Source: Phyllobacterium sp. (GTDB lineage: Bacteria; Pseudomonadota; Alphaproteobacteria; Rhizobiales; Rhizobiaceae). From it: a stretch of 64,000 nt of DNA. Below the pieces are notes generated by a model that was not told the origin of the DNA, made no database searches, and was given only the letters and a program-made list of their open reading frames with translations. Below, in pieces: positions 44,961 to 57,517 of this stretch (positions are counted from its first letter, which is position 1; each line of letters starts with the position of its first letter). The stretch is taken from NCBI GenBank assembly GCA_050726055.1, contig JBOHIW010000013.1, positions 59,044 through 123,043 of the forward strand, written 5' to 3'. The position numbers and the translations under genes are program-made.

Positions 44961-45794
44961 ATGAACTCCGAAAACACCCTGCTCTGCGTATTTTCATACA
45001 ATATGGGAGATGCGCTGAAGAACTGCATTGAATCCATGATGAAAATGTGCGGCGCCTTCGATGCCATCCTCATCGATGACGACAGCACAGATCCAAAAAC
45101 GATTGGCCATATCGAAGACTATCGGTCTGCGTTCATCGATGTTTTCACGAATACGTCACCAAAGATCGGCAAGCGGCATGGAAACCTCTACGACAATATC
45201 CAGATGTCGTATGAATACGCGCTCAACAATGGATATGAGTATGTCTTCTTTATTCAGGATGACATGCAGTTTGTTCGGCCAATGGATGAGCATATCTGCA
45301 AGGAATACGCGCTGTTGTTCGATAGTAGCGACAAGGTCATTCAGGTCGACCCGCGGTTTCTTCGCAACAGGAGCGGCTATGAAATACTGGGCGATATCAA
45401 GGCCTATCGCTATGACAGCGAAACATCCTATGCCGATGTCGGCATCACTCATGTCGGGCGGCTGAAGGCAATCAACTGGGCCTTCGGCGAGGGCGAGCGG
45501 GCGAACAAGGAACGCCTGTCCCGATTGGGATATATGCGATTGTTTCCCCATTCCCCGATCATAATGCATGTGCCTTTTCCGCAGGTATTCAGAAACGGGC
45601 GCAAGCGTTTCGATCCGTTTCTCCTCAACAGGGGGACATATGGATTTGAATATATGTCCGGTCCCGAAATTGAGAAGATGGACAGAAGGCCGGTCGAGGA
45701 CATACCCTATTTTCGCGATTTTCTCCGGCCAAGGAACATGAAGCTGGCGCGTCTTCTCTATGATCGCCGGGCGGACGGGAAGATATTCGCCTGA
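44961..45794 (+). CDS. GT-A fold glycosyltransferase (GT2-like)
   Basis: N-terminal beta-strand (CVFSYN), IDDDSTD, FIQDD DxD-like motif. Confidence 0.7.
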   Translation: MNSENTLLCVFSYNMGDALKNCIESMMKMCGAFDAILIDDDSTDPKTIGHIEDYRSAFIDVFTNTSPKIGKRHGNLYDNIQMSYEYALNNGYEYVFFIQDDMQFVRPMDEHICKEYALLFDSSDKVIQVDPRFLRNRSGYEILGDIKAYRYDSETSYADVGITHVGRLKAINWAFGEGERANKERLSRLGYMRLFPHSPIIMHVPFPQVFRNGRKRFDPFLLNRGTYGFEYMSGPEIEKMDRRPVEDIPYFRDFLRPRNMKLARLLYDRRADGKIFA

Positions 45795-45816
45795 TGCGGG
45801 GGGCCTGAAAAGCAAT

Positions 45817-46731
45817 ATGCGGTTTCGTTCGGCACGGCCACTGCGGCGCTCGCTCATCAAAATCCTGTCGCCGGTTTTCTGGGGGCGCGGCAGGGCGCAT
45901 AATCACGACTGGTGGCCCTTTCTCACGATCACGCGCGAAGCGAATGGCGAGCCGGGCGAAGCCGTCTATAAGGGGAAGGGCGTCGCGCGTCTTCATCCGC
46001 CGGAGCACCTGAAAAAGCACTCGCGGCAGCATATTCATATCATCGGCTCCGGTCCCTCCATCGCCATGAACGACCTGCCGCGGCTGGAGGCAGGTTCCGC
46101 GATCCTTCTCAACGGCGCGATCGATCTGATTGGAACGTCGATTGCCGATCCGCTTGCAATTGCAATCGAGGACGAGCGATTTGTCTCGCGTCATTTTCCG
46201 ATGATGCGGGAGAAAATACCGGAAACCGCGACCTGCCTTTTTTCTGTCGGAGTTTTGAGGGCTATCTGCGAACTGAACCCCGGCTGGCTCGCGGCGAAAA
46301 CGATCATACTGATCGATGATCTGCGCAAGCCCTACGGTTCCGGCAGAAAAACCTACGACGAACTGGAAAAGCTTCCCTTCATTCGAACGAACCAATCCCA
46401 TATGGCGGCGTTGTCGCTGGACCCCACGGAGGGCACGGTCGGGGCCGGCTCCGTGGCGGTGACAGCATTGCAATTTGCGATCTATTGCCATCCCCAGGGC
46501 ATCGGCCTGTTCGGCATCGATATATCGAACGCCAACGCGCCGCGCTTCTATGAGACGGAGGGGACCATGGCCAAGTCGGGAATAGCGAGCGCCGAGGACC
46601 GATTGCTTGCCCATTTCGCCCTGGCCCGGAGCATTTGTGACGAAGTGGAGATCGCGCTTTGGAATTTCTCGCCCATATCGGCACTGCTGAAGATCGGGCT
46701 GGAATATGACGCGCGCTTCCGGAAAGAATAG
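45817..46731 (+). CDS. WaaZ/LpcB-like CMP-Kdo transferase (GT73-like), LPS core modification
   Basis: IIGSGPS, LLNGA, IEDERF, GSVAVTALQFA, GIDIS...RFYE and WNFS match, in order, my recollection of the E. coli WaaZ blocks (LSGPT, AVNGS, TDVRF, TIAFAAIQIA, GLDL...RFYD, YNLS). Confidence 0.62.
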   Translation: MRFRSARPLRRSLIKILSPVFWGRGRAHNHDWWPFLTITREANGEPGEAVYKGKGVARLHPPEHLKKHSRQHIHIIGSGPSIAMNDLPRLEAGSAILLNGAIDLIGTSIADPLAIAIEDERFVSRHFPMMREKIPETATCLFSVGVLRAICELNPGWLAAKTIILIDDLRKPYGSGRKTYDELEKLPFIRTNQSHMAALSLDPTEGTVGAGSVAVTALQFAIYCHPQGIGLFGIDISNANAPRFYETEGTMAKSGIASAEDRLLAHFALARSICDEVEIALWNFSPISALLKIGLEYDARFRKE

Positions 46732-46823
46732 GCCGTCGGGTTTGCGTTTCTGTCCAATCGAAATAGAGAACTGAAAGACCGCGCGGCAAGCGCCGCGCCG
46801 AGCGTGCGAATACGGAGAAGAAG

Positions 46824-47738
46824 ATGAGCTGGTTCAAGAAAGCGCCGCCCTATACCAAGCAGATCAAGATACAGCCGCCCGTCGCCCGATCCGACCGTTC
46901 AGGCATCGCCATTGCCGCCGTCGTCAAGAATGAAGGCAGCTACATTGGCGAATGGCTCCGGTTCCACAGGGCCGTGGGTATCAGCCATTTTATCATCTAT
47001 GATGACGCCTCATCGGACGATACGCTCTCGGTTCTTCGCGACTGCCTCTCCGAGAGCGAGTTGACTGTCGTTCCCTGGGCGGGGCGCATGACGGACGCGT
47101 CAACGGGCAATCTGTTGAATTCGCAAGTGATTGCGTTCTGCCACGCGATATTGAATTTCGGTAGCCGGTTCCGGTGGATGGCATTCATCGACGTGGATGA
47201 GTTTCTCCTACCCAAGACCGGGCGCACCGTTGAAGAAGCCATGCAAAAGGTCAACGGCTTCCCGAACGTCTCGTTGCCATGGCACATGTTTGGCAGCAAC
47301 GGTCACAATAAGCGACCGGCGGGGCCGGTGGCGAGAAACTATACCAAGCGCGGAGCCGACCCGCTCAGCCGAAAGAAGAACGCGTCGAACTTCAAATGCA
47401 TTGTCGACCCGTGCGAGGTCACGGAAGTCAGCGTCCATCATTTTGAAACACGCGCGTTCGGGTCGCTGACCGCCAATGATGTCGGGTTCAGGGCAACCCG
47501 AAAAGGCCGGAAAAAGGCCAACTTCTATTCGGCGGACTGTCTCCAGCTCAATCACTATTATGGCAAGTCGGACGAAGAGTTGCAGGCGAAGCTCGATCGC
47601 GGACCAGCCTCTCCGGCGTCAAGGCAGCGCTACGAGCATCGGGTTCGGACGGCGGTCGAGAACATCGAGGCGGATCTGGTCGAGGACGATACGATGCTGC
47701 GCTTTCTGGAGCAGAACGGGATAGAGCTCGAAAACTGA
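46824..47738 (+). CDS. Glycosyltransferase, GT92/Glyco_tranf_2_4-like
   Basis: AVVKNEG.YI.EWL.FH, YDD.S.DDT, WMAFIDVDEFL, K.IVDP, QLNHY. Confidence 0.8.
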   Translation: MSWFKKAPPYTKQIKIQPPVARSDRSGIAIAAVVKNEGSYIGEWLRFHRAVGISHFIIYDDASSDDTLSVLRDCLSESELTVVPWAGRMTDASTGNLLNSQVIAFCHAILNFGSRFRWMAFIDVDEFLLPKTGRTVEEAMQKVNGFPNVSLPWHMFGSNGHNKRPAGPVARNYTKRGADPLSRKKNASNFKCIVDPCEVTEVSVHHFETRAFGSLTANDVGFRATRKGRKKANFYSADCLQLNHYYGKSDEELQAKLDRGPASPASRQRYEHRVRTAVENIEADLVEDDTMLRFLEQNGIELEN

Positions 47739-47740
47739 TA

Positions 47741-48817
47741 TCAGCCTTCCGTCTTGAGGGCTGTAGCACTGCGCATCAGCAGCGCCACGAGATCGGCCTG
47801 CCGGCTGGTCTGGGTTTTTCGGAAGATGTTCTGGAGGTGGAAGGTGATCGTCGTCTGGGCGACGCCCATCTCCGCGCCTATTTCATCGAGCCTTTTTCCG
47901 TCGGTCAGGGCAGCGGCCAATCGGGCTTCCGTCGGCGTGAGGCCGTAGAGATGGGCGGCCACCAGCGGAGAAAGCGGCGAGCGGCGTTCCGGATCGACGA
48001 TGAAGACGGCGGTGCTGAGGGACGAGAGGTTCTCCTCGGCACGCAAGGAATTGACTTCAACGAGCAGGGGCAGGCGGAGGCTTCTCGGCAGCGTGATCGT
48101 CCTGCGGGCGGCGGGCGTGCTGGCGACATCGGCGAGAGCCTGTTTCAGCGACTGGGTTGCCGGAGGCGTTGCGCCGCGCAAACCTGTATTGCCCCATGCA
48201 ATGCCGTCGGCTTCCGTGATGAGGTCGCGCGCAGTGCTGTTCATGAACTTCATTGCGCCGCCGGTTTCAAGCAGGATGACACCCGCGGCCATTCTGTCGA
48301 GCGTGCTGCCGATGGCCGCTATCGCGTCGCTCGCCCCTCTGGCCGCCAGAGCCGTGAGAGCCTTGCGTTCCTGCTCGAACCCGGCGAGCCCGGCGTTGCG
48401 CATGCGTTGGACCTGCGCCAGACGCGCCTGGATCGTCGCAAGAAGAACGTCATAGTCGATTGGTTTGACCAGATAGTCGTCAGCGCCTGCGGTCTTGCCG
48501 TGGATGATGTGTTCCCGGTCTGCAAGCGCGGTCAGGAATACGAAAGGCACATCGCCGAAATGCGGCCAGCGGCGGCGCATTTCCTTCATGAACTCAAAAC
48601 CGCCCATGACGGGCATCGTGATGTCGCAGAGCACCAGATCCGGCCTTCGCTCGTCAAGAAGGTCCAGAGCCTCGCGCCCGTTGCCAGCCGCCATGACATC
48701 ATGGCCGGCGGCCATCAGTTCCTCGACGATATCCGACCGCAGGTCGCTCTCGTCCTCCACGCAGAGGATCAGAGAGGTTGCGGATGATGGGTTGGGGCCG
48801 ATGGTGTCCCGGTTCAT
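47741..48817 (-). CDS. Response regulator with REC - PAS-like - LuxR HTH architecture
   Basis: VEDE, LCDITMP (phospho-Asp), FLTAL, DDYLVKP; central GVILL...FMNSTA PAS-like segment; LTPTEARLA..L..G...EIG..MGV...TI.FHLQNIFRK LuxR HTH. Confidence 0.9.
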   Translation of the reverse strand: MNRDTIGPNPSSATSLILCVEDESDLRSDIVEELMAAGHDVMAAGNGREALDLLDERRPDLVLCDITMPVMGGFEFMKEMRRRWPHFGDVPFVFLTALADREHIIHGKTAGADDYLVKPIDYDVLLATIQARLAQVQRMRNAGLAGFEQERKALTALAARGASDAIAAIGSTLDRMAAGVILLETGGAMKFMNSTARDLITEADGIAWGNTGLRGATPPATQSLKQALADVASTPAARRTITLPRSLRLPLLVEVNSLRAEENLSSLSTAVFIVDPERRSPLSPLVAAHLYGLTPTEARLAAALTDGKRLDEIGAEMGVAQTTITFHLQNIFRKTQTSRQADLVALLMRSATALKTEG

Positions 48818-50961
48818 CGCAGCACGCTCCGGTTCCGTGAATGCCTTTGGTTGAGTGGCAGGCTGAGGGTGAATGTCGTGCCGATGGCTTCCGTGCTTTC
48901 AACCGTAATGTCGCCGCCGTGCATGCGGGCGATCTCCCGCGCCAGATGAAGGCCGATGCCGGTGCCCTCGATACCAGCAGCCGTGCGGGCGCGAAAGAAG
49001 CGCTCGAACAGCCGGGGAATCTCATCGGCGGGAACGCCGATCCCGTAATCCTGCACGGTCATTTCCACCATGTCGTCGTCCTCGGATGCCCGTATTTGGA
49101 TCGGCAGGTTATCCGGGGAATATTTTGCGGCATTGGAAACGAGGTTGGCGATGACCTGATCCATCAGCAGCGGGTCGCAATTCACGCGGGCCGGGAAACC
49201 ATCGATCGTGATGTCGAAAATGCGTTCCGGCGTCAGTTCGCGTTGCCGTTCGCAGGCATCCTGAATGAGTTTTGCAAAATCCGACGGACGGGGATTGAAG
49301 TCGATCCGGCCGGAATCGAGACGCGCCGCGGTCAACGTGCTGTCGACCAGTTTCGCCAGACGCATCGCGGCGAGGCGGATTTTCTCCGTCCGGGTGCTGA
49401 TTTCCTCGATGTCCATGTCGTTGCCCCGGCGCATCATGCGCTGCGCGCTGGAGTCGATGATGGCAAGCGGCGTGCGAAACTGGTGCGAGACCATGGAGAC
49501 GAACCCGCGGTAAAGCTCACGAAGATTCTGTTCGCGTTCAAGGGCCGTCTGAAGCGCCATCGCGGATTCCTTGTAGCTGGTCACATCGGCGAAACGCATC
49601 ACGCTTCCCGCCTCGACAGAGCGGCGAAGCGTGACTAGCAGCCAGTCACCCGATGGAAGCTGCATCTCACCGGTCTGAATATTCTCCACTGCTTCCACGC
49701 GCTTTTCCGGCAGTTGCAGCGGCAATTCACCTCCGGCGAGCAGCGATTGGAGCGGCGTTCCGGGTTCGAAAAGCTCGGGTTTATCAGGAAAGAACTCCCT
49801 TGCACGCGGATTGGCGACGACAAGTCTGTCGCTTGCATCGAATGCCGCAAAGCCATCCGGCGCCGTGTTGATGGCCGTTCTCAACTGCAACTCCTTGAGA
49901 CGGAGATCCGCGGTGCGCACCTTGACGAGCCGCTCCAGCGCGTCCCTGTCTTCCTCGAGCTTGCGGTGGGCCTGATAGCGGTCGGTCACGTCGCGAATGA
50001 AAACGATGCCGCCGACGACCGCGCCGTCTTCGAGAATGGGGAAAGCTTCCTTCTCCACGTAGCGTTCGGCTTGCGGCAGATAGTGGTCCGACTGGTAGGT
50101 GCGCTTTCCCTGAAGCGCTGCCAGCACCATTTCCCTGACCGGATGATTGTCAGGAAAATCAAACTTCTCGAAGACTTTCAGGCCGATGACATTTTCTCTC
50201 TCCACCCCGAAGAGCTTGGCCATGCCTTCGTTCCAGTGCGTCAGGCGCATGTCCTGATCGAAAGCCGCTATGCCTTCGGTGCTGGCGTTCAGAACCAGGG
50301 CGGAAAATTCCAGTTCATGCTGGAGTTGATGTTTTGTCGTTTCGCTGCGCCGCAATTCCTGAAGGAGGCGCAGGGAAAGAACGCAACCGCAGGCGAGAAT
50401 GCCGATGACCGAGACAATAATTTCGAACAGGGATCTCTGGTAGCGGTCCCGCCGCCCCCCCATGGTCTGGCGCTCGTTGAAGACGAACTCTATCGCGGCG
50501 TCGCGGATCTCGTCGAGCAGTGGTTGCATGGTTTGCTCGAGCCGATCTCCGATCGGTTCTCCCTTCGCCAGCGCTGCGTCGAACCAGGGCTCGATATCCC
50601 TGACGGCCTTGGTCTGCTTGCTGAATTGCGGAGCGAAGCCGAGGGCGGCGACCTGCCGCGCCATCGGCCCCTCGCCGAGAAGGGTCATGCGGCTGAGCAA
50701 CAGGTCGTAGAGCAGCTTCACCCGCGCGACGGATTCCTCCGTTCGCGGCTCCGCATCGATCCGGCGCGCGCCCATCACCAGAAGCGCCCCCTGATATTGC
50801 GCGTTCATCAGCGCATGAAGCAGGCTTTCGCCGAACGTGCTTTTCAGTTCGTGCTCGATCTGCACGAGCCGGATGAGCGCGAAGGTCAGGAAAATGACGA
50901 AGGCCAGCATGGCCGTTCCCGTCAGAAGATATGTTTTCCACGCTCCGCCGCGCAGTGTCAT
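48814..50961 (-). CDS. Membrane sensor histidine kinase: 2 TM, helical periplasmic domain (DcpA-type), two PAS domains, HisKA, HATPase
   Basis: TM1 YLLTGTAMLAFVIFLTFALI; periplasmic YDLLLSRMTLL; TM2 IIVSVIGILACGCVL; H-box SHQFRTPL; N-box NLVSNAAKY; DYGIG and GTGIGL. ATG overlaps the upstream gene stop (ATGA). Confidence 0.9.
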   Translation of the reverse strand: MTLRGGAWKTYLLTGTAMLAFVIFLTFALIRLVQIEHELKSTFGESLLHALMNAQYQGALLVMGARRIDAEPRTEESVARVKLLYDLLLSRMTLLGEGPMARQVAALGFAPQFSKQTKAVRDIEPWFDAALAKGEPIGDRLEQTMQPLLDEIRDAAIEFVFNERQTMGGRRDRYQRSLFEIIVSVIGILACGCVLSLRLLQELRRSETTKHQLQHELEFSALVLNASTEGIAAFDQDMRLTHWNEGMAKLFGVERENVIGLKVFEKFDFPDNHPVREMVLAALQGKRTYQSDHYLPQAERYVEKEAFPILEDGAVVGGIVFIRDVTDRYQAHRKLEEDRDALERLVKVRTADLRLKELQLRTAINTAPDGFAAFDASDRLVVANPRAREFFPDKPELFEPGTPLQSLLAGGELPLQLPEKRVEAVENIQTGEMQLPSGDWLLVTLRRSVEAGSVMRFADVTSYKESAMALQTALEREQNLRELYRGFVSMVSHQFRTPLAIIDSSAQRMMRRGNDMDIEEISTRTEKIRLAAMRLAKLVDSTLTAARLDSGRIDFNPRPSDFAKLIQDACERQRELTPERIFDITIDGFPARVNCDPLLMDQVIANLVSNAAKYSPDNLPIQIRASEDDDMVEMTVQDYGIGVPADEIPRLFERFFRARTAAGIEGTGIGLHLAREIARMHGGDITVESTEAIGTTFTLSLPLNQRHSRNRSVLR

Positions 50962-51464
50962 TTTATGTTCAGCCGGTTCAGTTGCCAGACCCATCGCTGG
51001 TCGTTTCGTTCGTCCTGCAACTCGCGAAAATGGTCGCGCGGATAAACGATCCAAAGCGGGCCCTTGTCGCGGGCGGTCAGATCCTTGCCGTCCATCCTCC
51101 AGGCGAGGATAACGTCATATTTCTGGAAATCGGCAATCGGGATCTCGATGGAATAATCATTCAACGCGCTTGCGCGAGCGGCGGTCTTCTTGTCGGCGCC
51201 CACCCGCTCCAGAACCTCCCTGACGAGGACGCCGGTAAATTCATGCTTTCCATCCGTCCACGCGGTCGAGGTCGTGACCGTCAGCGTGCCGACGCGTTCG
51301 AGCATTTCGCGATCGAACGCGGCGGCATCAGGCGCATTTTCGTTGGTGATGTCGCCAGTAATGCGGAGAATGATCTCGCCCTTCGCGGCTGGCAGAGGCT
51401 CCTGCGCAAAACCGGACTGCGACAGGGCGAGGGTGATGGCGAGCCCCCCGAGTGCAGTTTTCAC
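50958..51464 (-). CDS. PruR-like periplasmic pterin-binding protein (degenerate sulfite-oxidase/molybdopterin fold, COG3915-like)
   Basis: Sec-type signal peptide (GTG start 51464, about 168 aa). Motifs L.I.G.I, FDREML, T.T.W....F.GV, ALNDY, ILA...DG......DKGPLWIVYP, WVWQL. No Cys in the mature protein. Alternative start ATG 51527. Confidence 0.8.
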   Translation of the reverse strand: MKTALGGLAITLALSQSGFAQEPLPAAKGEIILRITGDITNENAPDAAAFDREMLERVGTLTVTTSTAWTDGKHEFTGVLVREVLERVGADKKTAARASALNDYSIEIPIADFQKYDVILAWRMDGKDLTARDKGPLWIVYPRDHFRELQDERNDQRWVWQLNRLNIK

Positions 51465-51867: not shown

Positions 51868-51914
51868 TTTTTGCATTACTATGGTTTTGATTGGTTTCAG
51901 GGGAGGAGCTCACA

Positions 51915-52937
51915 ATGAAAATTTCTGCAATCGCGTTGTCTACCGTCGCCGCCCTGGCGATCTCGGCGTTTGCCGCACAGGCTGAGGATTTCAAGATCGG
52001 CTTGAGCAATGGCTGGGTTGGCAGCGAATGGCGCACCCAGATGATTGAAGAGGCGCAGGCCGCTGCCGCGGCATGGAAAGACAAGGGCGTGAATGTCGAG
52101 GTCGTGGTGCAGAGCGCCAATGTCGATGTGCCCGGCCAGATCGCCCATGTGCGTAATTTCATCAGTCAGGGCGTCGACGCCATCATCATCAATCCGAACA
52201 GCCCGACGGCCTTTGACCCGATCTTCAAACAGGCCAAGGAACAGGGCATTCTGGTGATTTCCACCGACGCTGAAGTGTCGTCGAAGGACGCCATGTATAT
52301 TGGGATCGACCAGAAGGCATGGGGCGCGGCTGGCGCGAAGTGGCTAGCGGAAGCACTGGGCGGCAAGGGCAATGTGGTCGCCATCAACGGCGTTGCGGGC
52401 CACCCGGCCAACGAAATGCGCGTTGCGGGCTACAAGGAAGTTTTCGCCAATTATCCTGATATCAAGGTCGTGAACGAGGTCAATGCCAACTGGGATCAGG
52501 CGCAGGGCCAGCAGGCCATGCAGAACCTGCTTGCGACCTATCCGGACATCAATGGCGTCTGGGTTCAGGACGGCATGGCCGCCGGTGCATGGAAGTCCAT
52601 CATGGATGCGGGCAAGACCGAGGGCATCGCCGCGACCGGCGAGATCCGCAAGGACTTCATCGATCTTTGGAACGAGAAGAAGCTCAACTCCGGCGCATCC
52701 GTGAACCCTCCGGGCGTCATGGCAAGCGCGCTGAATGTTGCGGTTCCGCTGCTTCAGGGCAAGGAGCTGAAGGAACCGGCGACGGCTGGCCAGTATGGCA
52801 ATGCGCTCTATTTGCCGATCCCGTTCATCGATTCCAGCAATCTCGCGGAAGTGACCAAGGCGGTCGAAGGCAAACCCGGCTACTATTCCTATACGAGCCA
52901 GTTGTCGATCGACGAAGCGCTGGCGCTGTTCAAGTAA
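51915..52937 (+). CDS. Sugar ABC transporter substrate-binding protein (RbsB-like)
   Basis: Signal peptide, SNGWVGSEWR, VDAIIINP, ANWD; GGAGGAG RBS. Confidence 0.9.
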   Translation: MKISAIALSTVAALAISAFAAQAEDFKIGLSNGWVGSEWRTQMIEEAQAAAAAWKDKGVNVEVVVQSANVDVPGQIAHVRNFISQGVDAIIINPNSPTAFDPIFKQAKEQGILVISTDAEVSSKDAMYIGIDQKAWGAAGAKWLAEALGGKGNVVAINGVAGHPANEMRVAGYKEVFANYPDIKVVNEVNANWDQAQGQQAMQNLLATYPDINGVWVQDGMAAGAWKSIMDAGKTEGIAATGEIRKDFIDLWNEKKLNSGASVNPPGVMASALNVAVPLLQGKELKEPATAGQYGNALYLPIPFIDSSNLAEVTKAVEGKPGYYSYTSQLSIDEALALFK

Positions 52938-53006
52938 GGTCCCGGACCTGTCGGGATGCGTGGCTTTCGCCGCGTATCCCCCAAGCTCATACGGCAAGGT
53001 TGCGAT

Positions 53007-54512
53007 ATGTCTGAACTGGTGATCCGTGGCGCGCAGAAAGCCTATGGCGCGACGCTCGCTTTGCGCCGCGGCGATCTGCATTTGCGTCCCGGAGAGGTCC
53101 ATGTGCTGATGGGCTCGAACGGGTCCGGCAAGAGCACCCTGTGCAAGATCGTGGCGGGGAGCGTGAAGCCGGACGCGGGCGAGGTGCTGCTGAATGGCAA
53201 GCCGGTCAGCGTGTCGGGGCCGCGCGCCGCGCGTGCGCTTGGCATCGGCATTTTCTGTCAGGAACTTTCGCTGGCCGCACGCCGCACCGTTGCTGAAAAT
53301 ATCTGCCTGCCAGCGATGCCCGCAAGAGCAGGCCTGTTCGTGGATCGCACAGCGCTGGACGACACCGCGCAGCGCTATATTGCTCTTTTCACGGATGTTG
53401 CGGGGGAGGATTTCTCCGCCGATGCAACGGTCGATACGTTGCGCGCCGACCAGCGCCAGCTTGTCGAGATCATGAAAGCGCTGGCGAGCGAGGCCGACAT
53501 CCTCATTTTCGACGAGCCGACCTCGGCGCTGGATCGTGCGCAAGTGGATCGCTTCTTTGAGGTGCTGAAACGGCTGAAGGCGGAAGGTCGCGCCATCGTC
53601 TTCATTTCCCATCGCATGGATGAGATATTCGCTATTGGCGACCGTGTGACGATCATGCGCGATGGTGAGACTGTCGCGACGTCGCCTATCGCCGAGACGG
53701 AGCCCGCGCAGGTCATCCGCCAGATGGTGGGGGATCGCGACGATCTGGCGATTTCCAGCGAAGCGCCCGCGGTGCACGCATCGAGCGATGGCGTGCTGCT
53801 TTCCGTTCGCGGCTTGAGCGGAAAGGGTTTTCGCGAGGTTTCCCTGCATGTCGCAAAGGGCGAGATCGTCGGTCTGGGCGGGTTGCACGGGCAGGGGCAA
53901 TCGGCCGTGTTGCGCGCGCTGTTCGGCGCGCAGCGCCACACGGGCGGAACGATCGAGCTCAAGGGCGAGAAACGATCCATGGCGTCGACGCGCGAAGCCA
54001 TTCGTCATGGTTGCGCCTATGTCTCCGGCGATCGCGGGCGCGACGGCGCCCTGACCGGTCGGCCCATTCTCGAAAACGTCACCCCCATCCATTTCCTGCG
54101 CAACAGGATCTCGCTGGTGCGGCCCGGATCGCTGAAAGAAGCGGTGCTCAAGCCGCTCTTGGCACTGAAGGCGAAATATCATTCGCTCGACCAGCCCATC
54201 AACGCGCTGTCCGGCGGCAACCAGCAAAAGATTATCATTGCGCGGTGGCTGGTCGACCGGCCCGATATCCTGCTGCTGGACGATCCGACAAAGGGTATCG
54301 ATCTCGCGGCCAAGACCGATCTTTTCGCCCTGATCCGCGAGCTGGCGGAGCAGGGTATGGGCATCGTGCTCTATTCATCGGAGGATGCCGAACTGCTGAA
54401 CAATTCCGATCGCATTCTTGTTTTCAACGGCGGTTCGATTTCGCGTGAACTGACGGGAGCCGACCGCACCCGCTTCAATCTTTATCAGGCAGCATATGAG
54501 GCCGCGCAATGA
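53007..54512 (+). CDS. Sugar ABC transporter ATP-binding protein (CUT2, duplicated NBD)
   Basis: GSNGSGKST, FDEPT, FISHR, LSGGNQQK, LDDPTKGID. Confidence 0.92.
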   Translation: MSELVIRGAQKAYGATLALRRGDLHLRPGEVHVLMGSNGSGKSTLCKIVAGSVKPDAGEVLLNGKPVSVSGPRAARALGIGIFCQELSLAARRTVAENICLPAMPARAGLFVDRTALDDTAQRYIALFTDVAGEDFSADATVDTLRADQRQLVEIMKALASEADILIFDEPTSALDRAQVDRFFEVLKRLKAEGRAIVFISHRMDEIFAIGDRVTIMRDGETVATSPIAETEPAQVIRQMVGDRDDLAISSEAPAVHASSDGVLLSVRGLSGKGFREVSLHVAKGEIVGLGGLHGQGQSAVLRALFGAQRHTGGTIELKGEKRSMASTREAIRHGCAYVSGDRGRDGALTGRPILENVTPIHFLRNRISLVRPGSLKEAVLKPLLALKAKYHSLDQPINALSGGNQQKIIIARWLVDRPDILLLDDPTKGIDLAAKTDLFALIRELAEQGMGIVLYSSEDAELLNNSDRILVFNGGSISRELTGADRTRFNLYQAAYEAAQ

Positions 54513-55495
54513 GCGACCTGACGACAGCCCCCGGAAAGCGAAGCGGCATGAAGGCGCTGCTGGCGAGTTTCCCGTTCATACCGGCGCTCATCATTCTCAT
54601 CGTGCTTTTCGCCCTGAATGGAATTTTTGAGCCGCGCAGCCTGAGTTTTCGCGCGGTAACGGGCATTTTCAGCACCTATCTCGCATTGATGCTGCTGGCG
54701 GTCGCCCAGACCTATGTGGTGTTTTCCGGTGATATCGACCTGTCGGCAGGGGCTATCGTCTCGCTGGTGAATGTCGTCATCATCGTGCTGATGGAGCGTT
54801 TGGGCGGCGGGCCTGGCGTGGTGCTGTTGGCCTGTTTCGCGGGCGCGCTGGTTGGCGCGGCGGCGGGATTGGTCAACGGCATCATTGTCGCCGGTCTGCG
54901 CTTGCAGGCCATTGTCGCGACCTTTGCCACAAGCATCTTCTTCACGGGACTGGCGCTTTATGTCTTGCCGGTGGCGGGAACGCCCGCGCCGGAGGCCTAT
55001 TGGCTCACCTATGGCGGGCGTTTTTTCGGCATTCCGTTTGTGTTCTTTATCGTCATTGCCGTCGCCATCATTGTCGGAACGCTGGCTCGCACGCGGCTCG
55101 TGACGCAGATGCTTTCGGTTGGTGATGATGCGATAGCGGCTTTCCAGAGCGGTCTTCCGGTCACGCTGATCCGCATCAAAGGCTATGTGCTGTGCGGATT
55201 CTTCTCCGCGCTTGCCGCGCTTTGTGTGACGGGCGATACGGCGAGCGGTGATCCGCTGGTCGGCGGCAAGATGACATTGTTCAGTGTCGCCGCCGTTGTT
55301 CTCGGCGGCAGCGCGCTTTCCGGCGGGTTCGGAACGGTTCTGGGCTCGATTGTCGGCGCGCTGATCATCGGCCTCATCAACTCGCTGGTCTTTTTCGTCG
55401 GCACGCCATCCGAGTGGCAAAACCTTGTTCAGGGTCTCGCCATCCTGCTTGCCCTGATGGCCGGTATCCTGGTCAGCCGGAGCGCACGGGCATGA
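54509..55495 (+). CDS. Sugar ABC transporter permease
   Basis: GDIDLSAGA, AAVVLGGSALSGG.G; hydrophobic; ATGA overlap. Confidence 0.9.
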   Translation: MSDLTTAPGKRSGMKALLASFPFIPALIILIVLFALNGIFEPRSLSFRAVTGIFSTYLALMLLAVAQTYVVFSGDIDLSAGAIVSLVNVVIIVLMERLGGGPGVVLLACFAGALVGAAAGLVNGIIVAGLRLQAIVATFATSIFFTGLALYVLPVAGTPAPEAYWLTYGGRFFGIPFVFFIVIAVAIIVGTLARTRLVTQMLSVGDDAIAAFQSGLPVTLIRIKGYVLCGFFSALAALCVTGDTASGDPLVGGKMTLFSVAAVVLGGSALSGGFGTVLGSIVGALIIGLINSLVFFVGTPSEWQNLVQGLAILLALMAGILVSRSARA

Positions 55496-56481
55496 GTATC
55501 GCAACAGGCACATCGCGCAGCGGAAGCAACGCCATCGTGAATTTCATCAAGCAACCGCTGGTCATCGCACTGGCCCTGATCGTGGTTCTTCTTCTGATCG
55601 GCGAAGCGCTGTCACCGGGCTTTGCCTCCCTTCAGCAGATATTGCGCCTGCTCATCGTCGCGGCGCTGCTCGGTATTGTCGCCGCGGGCCAGAATCTTGT
55701 CATTCTGGGCGGGCGCGAGGGCATCGACCTTTCAGTCGGCGGCATCGTTTCATTGAGCGCCGTGCTTGCCGGTAATGTGATGAATGGGGCGGATATAGGC
55801 ATTCTGCCCGCGATCCTCGTCAGCGTCGGTGTCGGTGCACTTTTCGGGATGTTCAACGGGCTGGGCGTGACGCTGCTTCGCATCCCGCCGCTGGTGATGA
55901 CTTTGGGTATGCTCGGCGTTTTGCAGGGGCTTCTGGTCGTCATTCGAAGCGGCATTCCGTCGGGGCGGGCGGCGCCCATGCTGTCGCAATTCGTGACGCA
56001 GCCTTTTCTGTTCGGCCTGCCGGGCATCATCTGGTTGTGGCTTCTGATTGGCGTGTTCATGGCCTTTCTTTTGCGGCGCACCGTCTTCGGGTATCGCATC
56101 TACGCCATCGGTTCCAACGAACAGGCGGCCTCTATGGCGGGTGTGCCTGTACGCGTGATCCGCGTTGGGCTGTTCATGCTTTCGGGCGCATTCGCGGCGC
56201 TGGCCGGGTTCTGCCTGCTGGGCTATTCCGGCTCATCCTTCGCCAATGTGGGCGAACAATATATGCTGCCCTCCATTATTGCCGTGGTGCTGGGCGGTAC
56301 GCCGCTTGCGGGCGGCAAGGGCGGCTATACCGGCACCATGGCGGGTGCCGTGCTGCTGACCGTTCTGCAAAGCATTCTGACCACGATCAACATCGATGAA
56401 TCGGGCCGCCAGATGGTGTTTGGCGCCACGCTGCTCGTGCTGATGCTGTTTTATGGGCGCAGCCGCGCCATGCGGGGCTGA
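55492..56481 (+). CDS. Sugar ABC transporter permease
   Basis: GIDLSVG, GYRIYAIGSN, IAVVLGGTPL.GGKG. Confidence 0.9.
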   Translation: MSIATGTSRSGSNAIVNFIKQPLVIALALIVVLLLIGEALSPGFASLQQILRLLIVAALLGIVAAGQNLVILGGREGIDLSVGGIVSLSAVLAGNVMNGADIGILPAILVSVGVGALFGMFNGLGVTLLRIPPLVMTLGMLGVLQGLLVVIRSGIPSGRAAPMLSQFVTQPFLFGLPGIIWLWLLIGVFMAFLLRRTVFGYRIYAIGSNEQAASMAGVPVRVIRVGLFMLSGAFAALAGFCLLGYSGSSFANVGEQYMLPSIIAVVLGGTPLAGGKGGYTGTMAGAVLLTVLQSILTTINIDESGRQMVFGATLLVLMLFYGRSRAMRG

Positions 56482-56482
56482 C

Positions 56483-57517
56483 GTGAGCACGAGAGCCAAG
56501 ATCAAGGATATCGCGCGACAGGTGGGCGTTTCGCCCGCGACTGTCTCGCGTGCGCTGGCGGGGTCAAGCCTTGTCGCCGAACCCACGCTTTCGCGGGTGC
56601 GGGAGGCGGCGCAAAAGCTGAATTACCGGCCGAATGTCAGCGCCCGCAATCTGCGAACGCAGAAATCCATGGCAGTGTTGCTGGTGGTGCGCGATGTCGC
56701 CAACCCCTTTTATCTGGAAATTTTCAAAGGCGTTGACGCGGCCGCGCGCGAGGCTGGTTATTCCGTGCTGATGGGCAATACGGAGGATCACTCCGAGCGC
56801 GAGCTTGAATATTTCGATATGCTGCGCGACGGCCATGCCGACGGTATGATCCTGATGAACGGCAAGCTGCCGTCCAGCTATGCCAGAAATCCTGAAAAGG
56901 TTGCTGGCCTGCCGATCGTGGTGGCTCTGGAAGTCATCGAGAATGCGAAGCTGCCGCATGTGCAGATCGACAATGAGGCGGCGGCGCGTGTGGCCGTGCA
57001 GCATCTTCTGTCGCTCGGGCACAGGCGCATTGCGCATATTTGCGGGCCCATACCCGAAGTCATGAGCGTGCGCCGCCGCGAGGGCTTTCGCAAGGCGATG
57101 CAGGAGGCGGGCTTCGGCATACCGGAACGGTTTGAACCTGTCGGCGATTATACGATCCAGTCGGGCGCGGAACTGTGCCGTGAACTGTATTCCCGGCCCA
57201 ATCCGCCCAGCGCGCTTTTTGTCGGCAATGACCAGATGGCGTTTGGCGCGATCAACGAACTGCGCCGGATGGGCCTGTCGGTGCCCGGGGATGTATCGGT
57301 TGTCGGCTTCGATGATCTTTTCCTCAGTGAGTGCTTTTTCCCGCCGCTGACGACGATCAGCCAGCCGCGCGCGGAGATCGGGCGTCACGCCATGTCGCAG
57401 CTTCTCCATGTCATGAATGGCGACGACGTTGCGCCTCTGGTCGAAATGCCGACGGCCCTGAAAATTCGCAATTCGACAGCGCCGGTATCCCACAATCGGA
57501 TCGCGGCCAAAATATAA
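56483..57517 (+). CDS. LacI family transcriptional regulator
   Basis: IKDIARQVGVSPATVSRAL, LNYRPN..ARNL, NPFY, DQMAFG, VSVVGFDD, PPLTTISQP; GTG start. Confidence 0.93.
   Translation: MSTRAKIKDIARQVGVSPATVSRALAGSSLVAEPTLSRVREAAQKLNYRPNVSARNLRTQKSMAVLLVVRDVANPFYLEIFKGVDAAAREAGYSVLMGNTEDHSERELEYFDMLRDGHADGMILMNGKLPSSYARNPEKVAGLPIVVALEVIENAKLPHVQIDNEAAARVAVQHLLSLGHRRIAHICGPIPEVMSVRRREGFRKAMQEAGFGIPERFEPVGDYTIQSGAELCRELYSRPNPPSALFVGNDQMAFGAINELRRMGLSVPGDVSVVGFDDLFLSECFFPPLTTISQPRAEIGRHAMSQLLHVMNGDDVAPLVEMPTALKIRNSTAPVSHNRIAAKI

Follow-up and report, generated by a model that had tools for sequence, protein, structure and literature searches.

The 64,000-nucleotide stretch of a Phyllobacterium sp. 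genome analysed here (contig JBOHIW010000013.1 of GenBank assembly GCA_050726055.1, positions 59,044 to 123,043; the window) contains at 47741-51464 three minus-strand genes that encode a PruR-like protein, a sensor histidine kinase and a response regulator. Our analyses indicate that this locus is probably an intact relay in which a pterin-responsive PruR protein acts through the kinase on the regulator. It is a further member of the kinase-coupled PruR systems that were named PruR-DTB (Greenwich et al., PNAS 2024, PMC11194511), where they account for 23-29% of 5,595 pairs and where adjacent response regulators were noted as frequent; the class was reviewed in 2026 with a kinase from Ruegeria pomeroyi as the example (PMC13259868). 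The idea is thus already published in outline and is not novel. Our literature search found no experimental study of any PruR-DTB system, and the initial annotation was right to call kinase-coupled versions predicted and uncharacterised. What is particular to the locus is that the WX7E motif of the sensor domain is replaced by an H/Q pair, and that the kinase is accompanied by a dedicated regulator with a receiver (REC), a PAS-like and a LuxR-type domain. The proposal made from the sequence at the outset, that PruR input is passed to a phosphorelay and a DNA-binding regulator, is supported by homology and gene linkage, with the qualifications that the idea is not new and that the WX7E signature is not preserved. 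The three genes are as follows.

50958..51464, minus strand: pruR-like gene, 168 amino acids, GTG start, encoding a putatively exported, Cys-free protein of truncated sulfite-oxidase fold.

48814..50961, minus strand: sensor histidine kinase gene of PruR-DTB type, 715 amino acids, its ATG overlapping the pruR stop codon.

47741..48817, minus strand: response regulator gene, 358 amino acids, its ATG overlapping the kinase stop codon.

The ATGA overlaps lie at 50961-50958 (pruR/kinase) and 48817-48814 (kinase/regulator) and were read directly in the sequence. In the two junction sequences, AAAATGACA and GCGATGAAC respectively, the start codon falls within the preceding stop as ATGA. Coordinates and overlaps agreed throughout with the initial description of three minus-strand genes joined in this way.

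By sequence comparison, the small protein is shown to be a PruR homologue with a truncated sulfite-oxidase fold in which the pterin-sandwich residues are retained. Against the sequences in the PDB it matched Agrobacterium tumefaciens PruR (7kos/7kou) with E=1.7e-36, the Klebsiella protein 7rkb with E=2e-35 and the Vibrio proteins 7kom and 7kp2 with E of approximately 1e-21. It is 49% identical to mature A. tumefaciens PruR, and its 168 residues compare with 163-182 in its homologues. The motifs ALNDY (residues 100-104), DKGP (133-136) and VWQ (159-161) are all present; ALNDY, DKGP and WQ had been noticed at the outset. PruR proteins are defined by pterin binding, with H4-monapterin preferred. 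The pteridine ring lies sandwiched between Y104 and W160 of PruR and forms a hydrogen bond with N102 (PMC11194511), in keeping with the contacts that the initial annotation gave for the Asn and Tyr of ALNDY and for the C-terminal Trp; all three residues are kept at aligned positions, with the same numbers in both proteins. Export is suggested by one further feature.

51405..51464, minus strand: putative Sec signal peptide, residues 1-20, VKTALGGLAITLALSQSGFA, with cleavage before QE, assigned by inspection of the sequence.

Homologues carry comparable hydrophobic leaders at their N-termini; the leader encoded in the window ends GFA/QE.

The second component is a kinase whose N-terminal part contains the two features below.

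50434..50862, minus strand: periplasmic sensor domain, a DcpA-type helical bundle, approximately residues 34-176 (about 143 amino acids).

50791..50817, minus strand: position of the WX7E motif, from H49 (CAT, 50815-50817) through Q57 (CAG, 50791-50793).

The periplasmic domain is flanked by transmembrane segments at approximately residues 11-33 (TM1) and 177-199 (TM2), which were read from the sequence and with which a helical model agrees. A full HMMER/phmmer search of 1.84 billion representatives with kinase residues 1-215 yielded 99 homologues, all aligned at their N-termini. A profile made from 50 of these was compared with a DcpA N-terminal profile built from the DcpA proteins of same-genus relatives, and hhalign returned 97.7% with E=2e-12 over a region spanning TM1, the bundle and TM2. 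By this profile comparison the periplasmic domain of the kinase is homologous to that of DcpA. A word-index search with the sensor domain recovered the query and one metagenome protein only, a result that reflects the limit of the index and not true rarity. The AlphaFold2 model of the domain is all-helical, with a predicted local distance difference test score (pLDDT) of 84.5.

The cytoplasmic part of the kinase consists of two PAS domains and a transmitter.

49975..50292, minus strand: PAS domain 1, PAS_4, residues 224-329 (Pfam E=8.9e-19).

49564..49869, minus strand: PAS domain 2, PAS_7, residues 365-466 (Pfam E=4.1e-14).

48850..49506, minus strand: transmitter, with HisKA at residues 486-551 (E=3.6e-09) and HATPase_c at residues 596-704 (E=2.9e-29).

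Reading of the sequence placed the phospho-accepting His at H493 in an H-box SHQFRTPL and found the N, G1, F and G2 boxes complete, and in an alignment of 50 kinase sequences H493, N606, N610 and the G-boxes are near-invariant. Judged by these motifs, the kinase is catalytically intact.

Three domains were assigned in the regulator.

48431..48769, minus strand: receiver domain, residues 17-129 (Pfam Response_reg PF00072, E=7e-26).

47996..48331, minus strand: middle PAS-like alpha/beta domain, residues 163-274 (model topology).

47783..47941, minus strand: LuxR/GerE helix-turn-helix (HTH), residues 293-345 (Pfam GerE, E=4.2e-08).

The receiver and GerE matches bear out the early description of this protein as a LuxR-type response regulator. 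Its receiver has an acidic pocket (E21/D22), the phospho-acceptor D65 and K118; D22, D65 and K118 are invariant in an alignment of 41 regulator homologues. In the AlphaFold2 model (pLDDT 83.6) the receiver (residues 16-121) is followed by a long helix (122-159), the PAS-like domain (163-274) and the HTH (284-356), so that the GerE HTH does not directly follow the receiver but is separated from it by approximately 150 residues. The regulator thus has a variant architecture relative to the NarL/FixJ type. Searches of Pfam and of PDB sequences returned nothing significant for the middle domain, and PF08448 matches occur in a few regulator homologues; the label "PAS-like" is used on account of the model topology and these sporadic matches. 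A Foldseek search with the regulator model was dominated by REC domains, and the best full-length match was StyR (1yio).

Selection on the kinase and regulator could be assessed by comparison with an 83%-identical metagenome relative (L029), whose kinase is 86% identical; its contig begins inside the kinase gene, and the comparison covers kinase and regulator. The ratio of nonsynonymous to synonymous substitution rates (dN/dS) is 0.10 for the whole kinase, 0.096 for its sensor domain, 0.10 for the regulator and 0.012 for the HTH (residues 286-358). The sensor domain is under purifying selection.

Several observations weigh against an intact relay, and most of them concern the contact between PruR and the kinase. 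W40 and E48 of DcpA, which make up WX7E, are described in the literature as invariant. In the window kinase the corresponding columns hold H49 and Q57, and both "invariant" residues are therefore replaced; if the W/E pair forms the contact with PruR, this could mean altered or lost docking. A Foldseek search with the sensor model gave weak helical-bundle matches (NarQ, the best, at E=0.05, and Adeh_2942), none of them at E<=0.001. Such matches are consistent with a four-helix-type sensor and are non-discriminating. The two cytoplasmic PAS domains of the kinase and the PAS-like domain of the regulator could bring in other inputs. Lastly, on a JGI metagenome contig (L027:1129-1536) the PruR-like gene encodes only 135 amino acids owing to a 37-residue in-frame deletion, which takes out exactly the segment from ALNDY through DKGP and with it the Asn and Tyr that contact the pterin. 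Further downstream the kinase (with FX7Q) and the regulator (55% identical to that of the window) look intact, which argues that kinase and regulator can persist without a competent pterin pocket.

The replaced residues were compared across the family. The same HALMNAQYQ is found in L029, so the H49/Q57 pair is not a sequencing error. Among 50 relatives the W column contains W in 46, F in two, Y in one and H in the window kinase alone, and E stands at +8 in 28 of the 50 sensor homologues, which makes WX7E less strict in the kinase subfamily than the literature states. In eight aligned kinases that are linked to a regulator, Q at +8 accompanies each of the three non-W residues (H, F or Y), and E accompanies W in the other five. 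Q at +8 occurs in four of the wider set of 50, three of them with a residue other than W; such cases may be related by descent. Since WX7E is absent, the PruR-kinase contact is derived here from homology and gene coupling and not from a preserved signature.

These data leave some room, though much less than for the intact relay, for a rewired module in which a kinase of the DcpA-type lineage with HX7Q has lost the canonical way of reading PruR, or reads it under other conditions (for example His protonation). The main inputs would then be the PAS domains of the kinase and/or the PAS-like domain of the regulator, with PruR as an accessory. The H that is unique among the 50 representatives, the constant pairing of H, F or Y with Q in regulator-linked kinases, which suggests a functionally coupled pair, the deleted PruR of L027 and the three PAS-type domains all speak for rewiring. 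It is countered by the window PruR, which retains every pterin-contact residue, by the ATGA that still joins the pruR stop to the kinase start, by the low dN/dS of the sensor domain, by the looseness of the motif at +8 and by the PruR-kinase adjacency, which is maintained in all other relatives examined. More speculatively, and with a lower probability still, the paired change of W to H, F or Y and of E to Q may mark a kinase sublineage with a remodelled receptor-sensor contact, an input beyond simple pterin occupancy and an output in surface glycosylation or adhesion. Possible forms of this are pH- or redox-gated docking through His49, or PruR-independent signalling, as hinted by L027. If it were true, control of surface genes in the window genome would contrast with the c-di-GMP coupling through DcpA of PruR in the same genus (nine of 24 genomes). 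The intact relay remains the reading that we prefer.

A different reading of the small protein, as a molybdenum cofactor (Moco)-type oxidoreductase or a binder of some other ligand to which the kinase responds, is very improbable: its Pfam match is indeed to the molybdopterin oxidoreductase domain (Oxidored_molyb PF00174, E=1.2e-10), but it has no Cys residue at all, W69 (W70 in A. tumefaciens) stands where the Moco-ligating Cys would be, a residue whose lack had been noted initially, the length of 168 residues and the truncated hairpin are typical of PruR, the 49% identity with conserved sandwich residues is to a demonstrated pterin binder (PMC11194511), and true sulfite oxidases in the PDB reach only E of approximately 0.6. 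The residue before W69 is Ala, giving AW in place of the PW motif of A. tumefaciens PruR.

The pairing of the regulator with PruR was surveyed across 401 genomes from the same order, counting regulators at E<=1e-50 and PruR linkage within 5 kb. PruR is present in 112 of these genomes and the regulator family in 12. Thirteen of the 15 non-self regulator copies sit 0.8-4.4 kb from a PruR gene (six collinear, seven divergent), a tight linkage between this family and PruR. Collinear order with 4-nucleotide overlaps was found in Bosea minatitlanensis, Rhizobiaceae bacterium n13, a Brucella sp. metagenome-assembled genome, Chelativorans, Roseomonas and two metagenome contigs. The PruRs of the kinase/regulator modules form a clade of their own, apart from the DcpA-linked PruRs, with 100/100 support, and the two groups differ in their C-terminal signature (DERxDxRWVWQL in module PruRs versus QTYYxRSAWQV in DcpA-linked PruRs). 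It has been shown, then, that the pruR, kinase and regulator genes are translationally coupled and co-inherited across several families. That the three are neighbours and not partners, with another kinase serving the regulator and the ATGA overlaps incidental, is accordingly hard to credit: two of the 15 regulator copies lack PruR linkage and the copy in Microvirga flavescens is located away from any PruR, but against these stand the 13 linked copies, a collinear overlapping order that recurs in at least seven families or genera, and the congruent PruR clade.

As a whole, the regulator family counts over 1,456 proteins at E<=1e-10, annotated merely as "response regulator" in Microvirga, Bosea, Brucella/Ochrobactrum, Chelativorans, Pseudaminobacter, Ancylobacter and Roseomonas. 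A search for related loci in the genome contigs with the regulator returned unrelated REC proteins only, and the peptide patterns used were specific to the window. In two genomes of the survey, PruR matches (G248:C1:1611729-1612196 and G410:C85:38576-39043) lie within open frames of 612 and 632 amino acids; here PruR could be fused to a longer protein, or there could merely be no upstream stop codon.

The genome to which the window belongs has a single PruR, and a genome-wide search found no protein with a DcpA-type N-terminus. In the same genus, PruR occurs in nine of 24 genomes and is 42-45% identical to the window protein. At the eight loci inspected, PruR adjoins a long open reading frame (ORF) with a DcpA-type N-terminus and WX7E at W40/E48; in two of these eight ORFs, Pfam matches confirmed GGDEF-EAL domains. 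In the PruR tree the same-genus proteins group with A. fabrum PruR. Since the PruRs of its relatives pair with DcpA-type ORFs, the module in the window is of another lineage than their PruR systems. The module lies in an accessory region. Of 31 genomes of the genus, 30 have the pfkB kinase gene that lies nearby. Divergent from pruR is an operon (51891-57517, plus strand) that encodes a sugar ATP-binding cassette (ABC) transporter and a LacI-type regulator; the 30 other genus genomes contain no orthologue (E<=1e-60) of the binding protein of this transporter, which makes the flank on the pruR side accessory as well. Scans of the region upstream of pruR for promoters, terminators and palindromes gave nothing above chance worth calling an operator.

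The initial annotation had seen no pteridine reductase in the window and had suggested that the signal may originate elsewhere in the genome or in other organisms. The first point stands: the 64-kb window contains no PruA/FolM-like gene, and tblastn with the PruA candidate of the genome gave one weak match, a short-chain dehydrogenase/reductase with 24% identity. The second point is answered in part: a search of the genome for pruA/folM found a syntenic pruA orthologue.

C16:32200-32979 of the window genome, plus strand: pruA orthologue, outside the window.

This gene matches NF006597 with 383 bits and PDB 5tgd ("FolM alternative dihydrofolate reductase") with E=9e-103, and its product carries the YXXXK motif as YTLSK. 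The gene shares a 4-bp ATGA with uvrC, and an outer-membrane protein (OMP) gene diverges from it; A. tumefaciens pruA (Atu1130) is arranged in the same way. One gene for GTP cyclohydrolase I (folE) and two of the FolB family also occur in the genome, and together with pruA these make an endogenous pterin signal plausible.

By analogy with PruR-DcpA of A. tumefaciens, the relay would work as follows. PruR would be exported to the periplasm and there bind an excreted pterin. The likeliest ligand would be a reduced pterin of the monapterin type, made by way of the folE, folB-family and pruA products of the genome. Pterin-loaded PruR would dock on the periplasmic bundle of the kinase and shift the balance between its kinase and phosphatase activities. 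Phosphoryl transfer would then proceed from H493 of the kinase to D65 of the regulator, whose REC/helix/PAS-like module would govern HTH dimerisation and DNA binding.

The genes next to the module provide circumstantial and weak hints of an output at the cell surface or in adhesion. In other genomes the module adjoins autotransporter adhesin genes at three loci, and elsewhere genes for polysaccharide synthesis or for an EAL-only protein. Upstream of the module and divergent from it, a large autotransporter adhesin with PATR and Autotransporter domains was found at L030:258-3056, L044:1-3207 and L045:1-3252; in Bosea (L032) the regulator is followed by a 147-residue ORF and the EAL-only protein. 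In the window, a three-gene glycosyltransferase-like cluster (44961-47738, plus strand) is convergent with the regulator gene. It consists of an ORF of low GC (about 0.50) that matches GT2 weakly, an ORF with a sub-threshold MptE-like/DUF115 match and a GT92 gene, the last of which keeps its position beside the regulator in L029 (68% identity). These glycosyltransferase-like genes are possible members of the regulon. The MptE-like match of 45760-46731 was considered as a link to pterin synthesis and rejected, given its 21.7 bits against a threshold of 34.6 and its setting in a glycosyltransferase cluster; the MptE-like ("6-hydroxymethylpterin diphosphokinase-like") fold is usual in such clusters.

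PruR-DTB systems make up approximately a quarter of PruR-linked regulators, and this locus is a clean candidate for the first characterisation of one. Its advantages are intact kinase motifs, a dedicated and co-inherited LuxR-type regulator, a sole PruR, the presence of pruA and the lack of a competing PruR-DcpA pair. The natural H/Q swap, together with the joint change of W and E, could guide structure-function work on PruR docking. The locus fills a predicted class and leaves current understanding unchanged.

Comparison with known systems places the locus closest to PruR-DTB as defined in PMC11194511, namely a DcpA-type periplasmic domain of approximately 138-150 amino acids on a TorS/BaeS-like kinase; the corresponding segment here is about 143. 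Shared with that class are a pruR gene directly upstream of, and coupled to, a protein with two transmembrane segments and a DcpA-type domain, a cytoplasmic part with PAS, HisKA and HATPase_c domains and neither GGDEF nor EAL, and an adjacent regulator gene. The window kinase differs in having H49...Q57 instead of WX7E. It is also non-hybrid, without a receiver domain, whereas the Ruegeria pomeroyi PruR-DTB kinase is a hybrid. Its partner is a REC/PAS-like/LuxR protein, and the family-wide link of such regulators to a distinct PruR clade is absent from PMC11194511 and PMC13259868.

With PruR-DcpA of A. tumefaciens (Atu3496-Atu3495; PMC4488946, PMC11194511) the locus shares the PruR fold and pterin contacts at 49% identity, a homologous sensor domain, the operon logic and a pruA gene in uvrC/OMP synteny. 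The outputs differ, being c-di-GMP turnover by GGDEF-EAL in A. tumefaciens and a predicted phosphorelay to a transcription factor here; the window PruR also belongs to a separate clade, and its genome is without a DcpA-type protein. TorT-TorS-TorR of E. coli and NspS-MbaA of Vibrio cholerae follow the same logic of a soluble periplasmic receptor acting on a membrane sensor (PMC11194511), but TorT and NspS have solute-binding-protein folds and not the sulfite oxidase (SUOX) fold, their ligands are trimethylamine N-oxide and polyamines, and they show no sequence relationship to the window PruR. The regulator, finally, shares REC and a C-terminal GerE HTH with NarL/FixJ regulators such as StyR (1yio), and differs from StyR-type regulators in the approximately 150 extra residues, a long helix and a PAS-like domain, that lie between the two.

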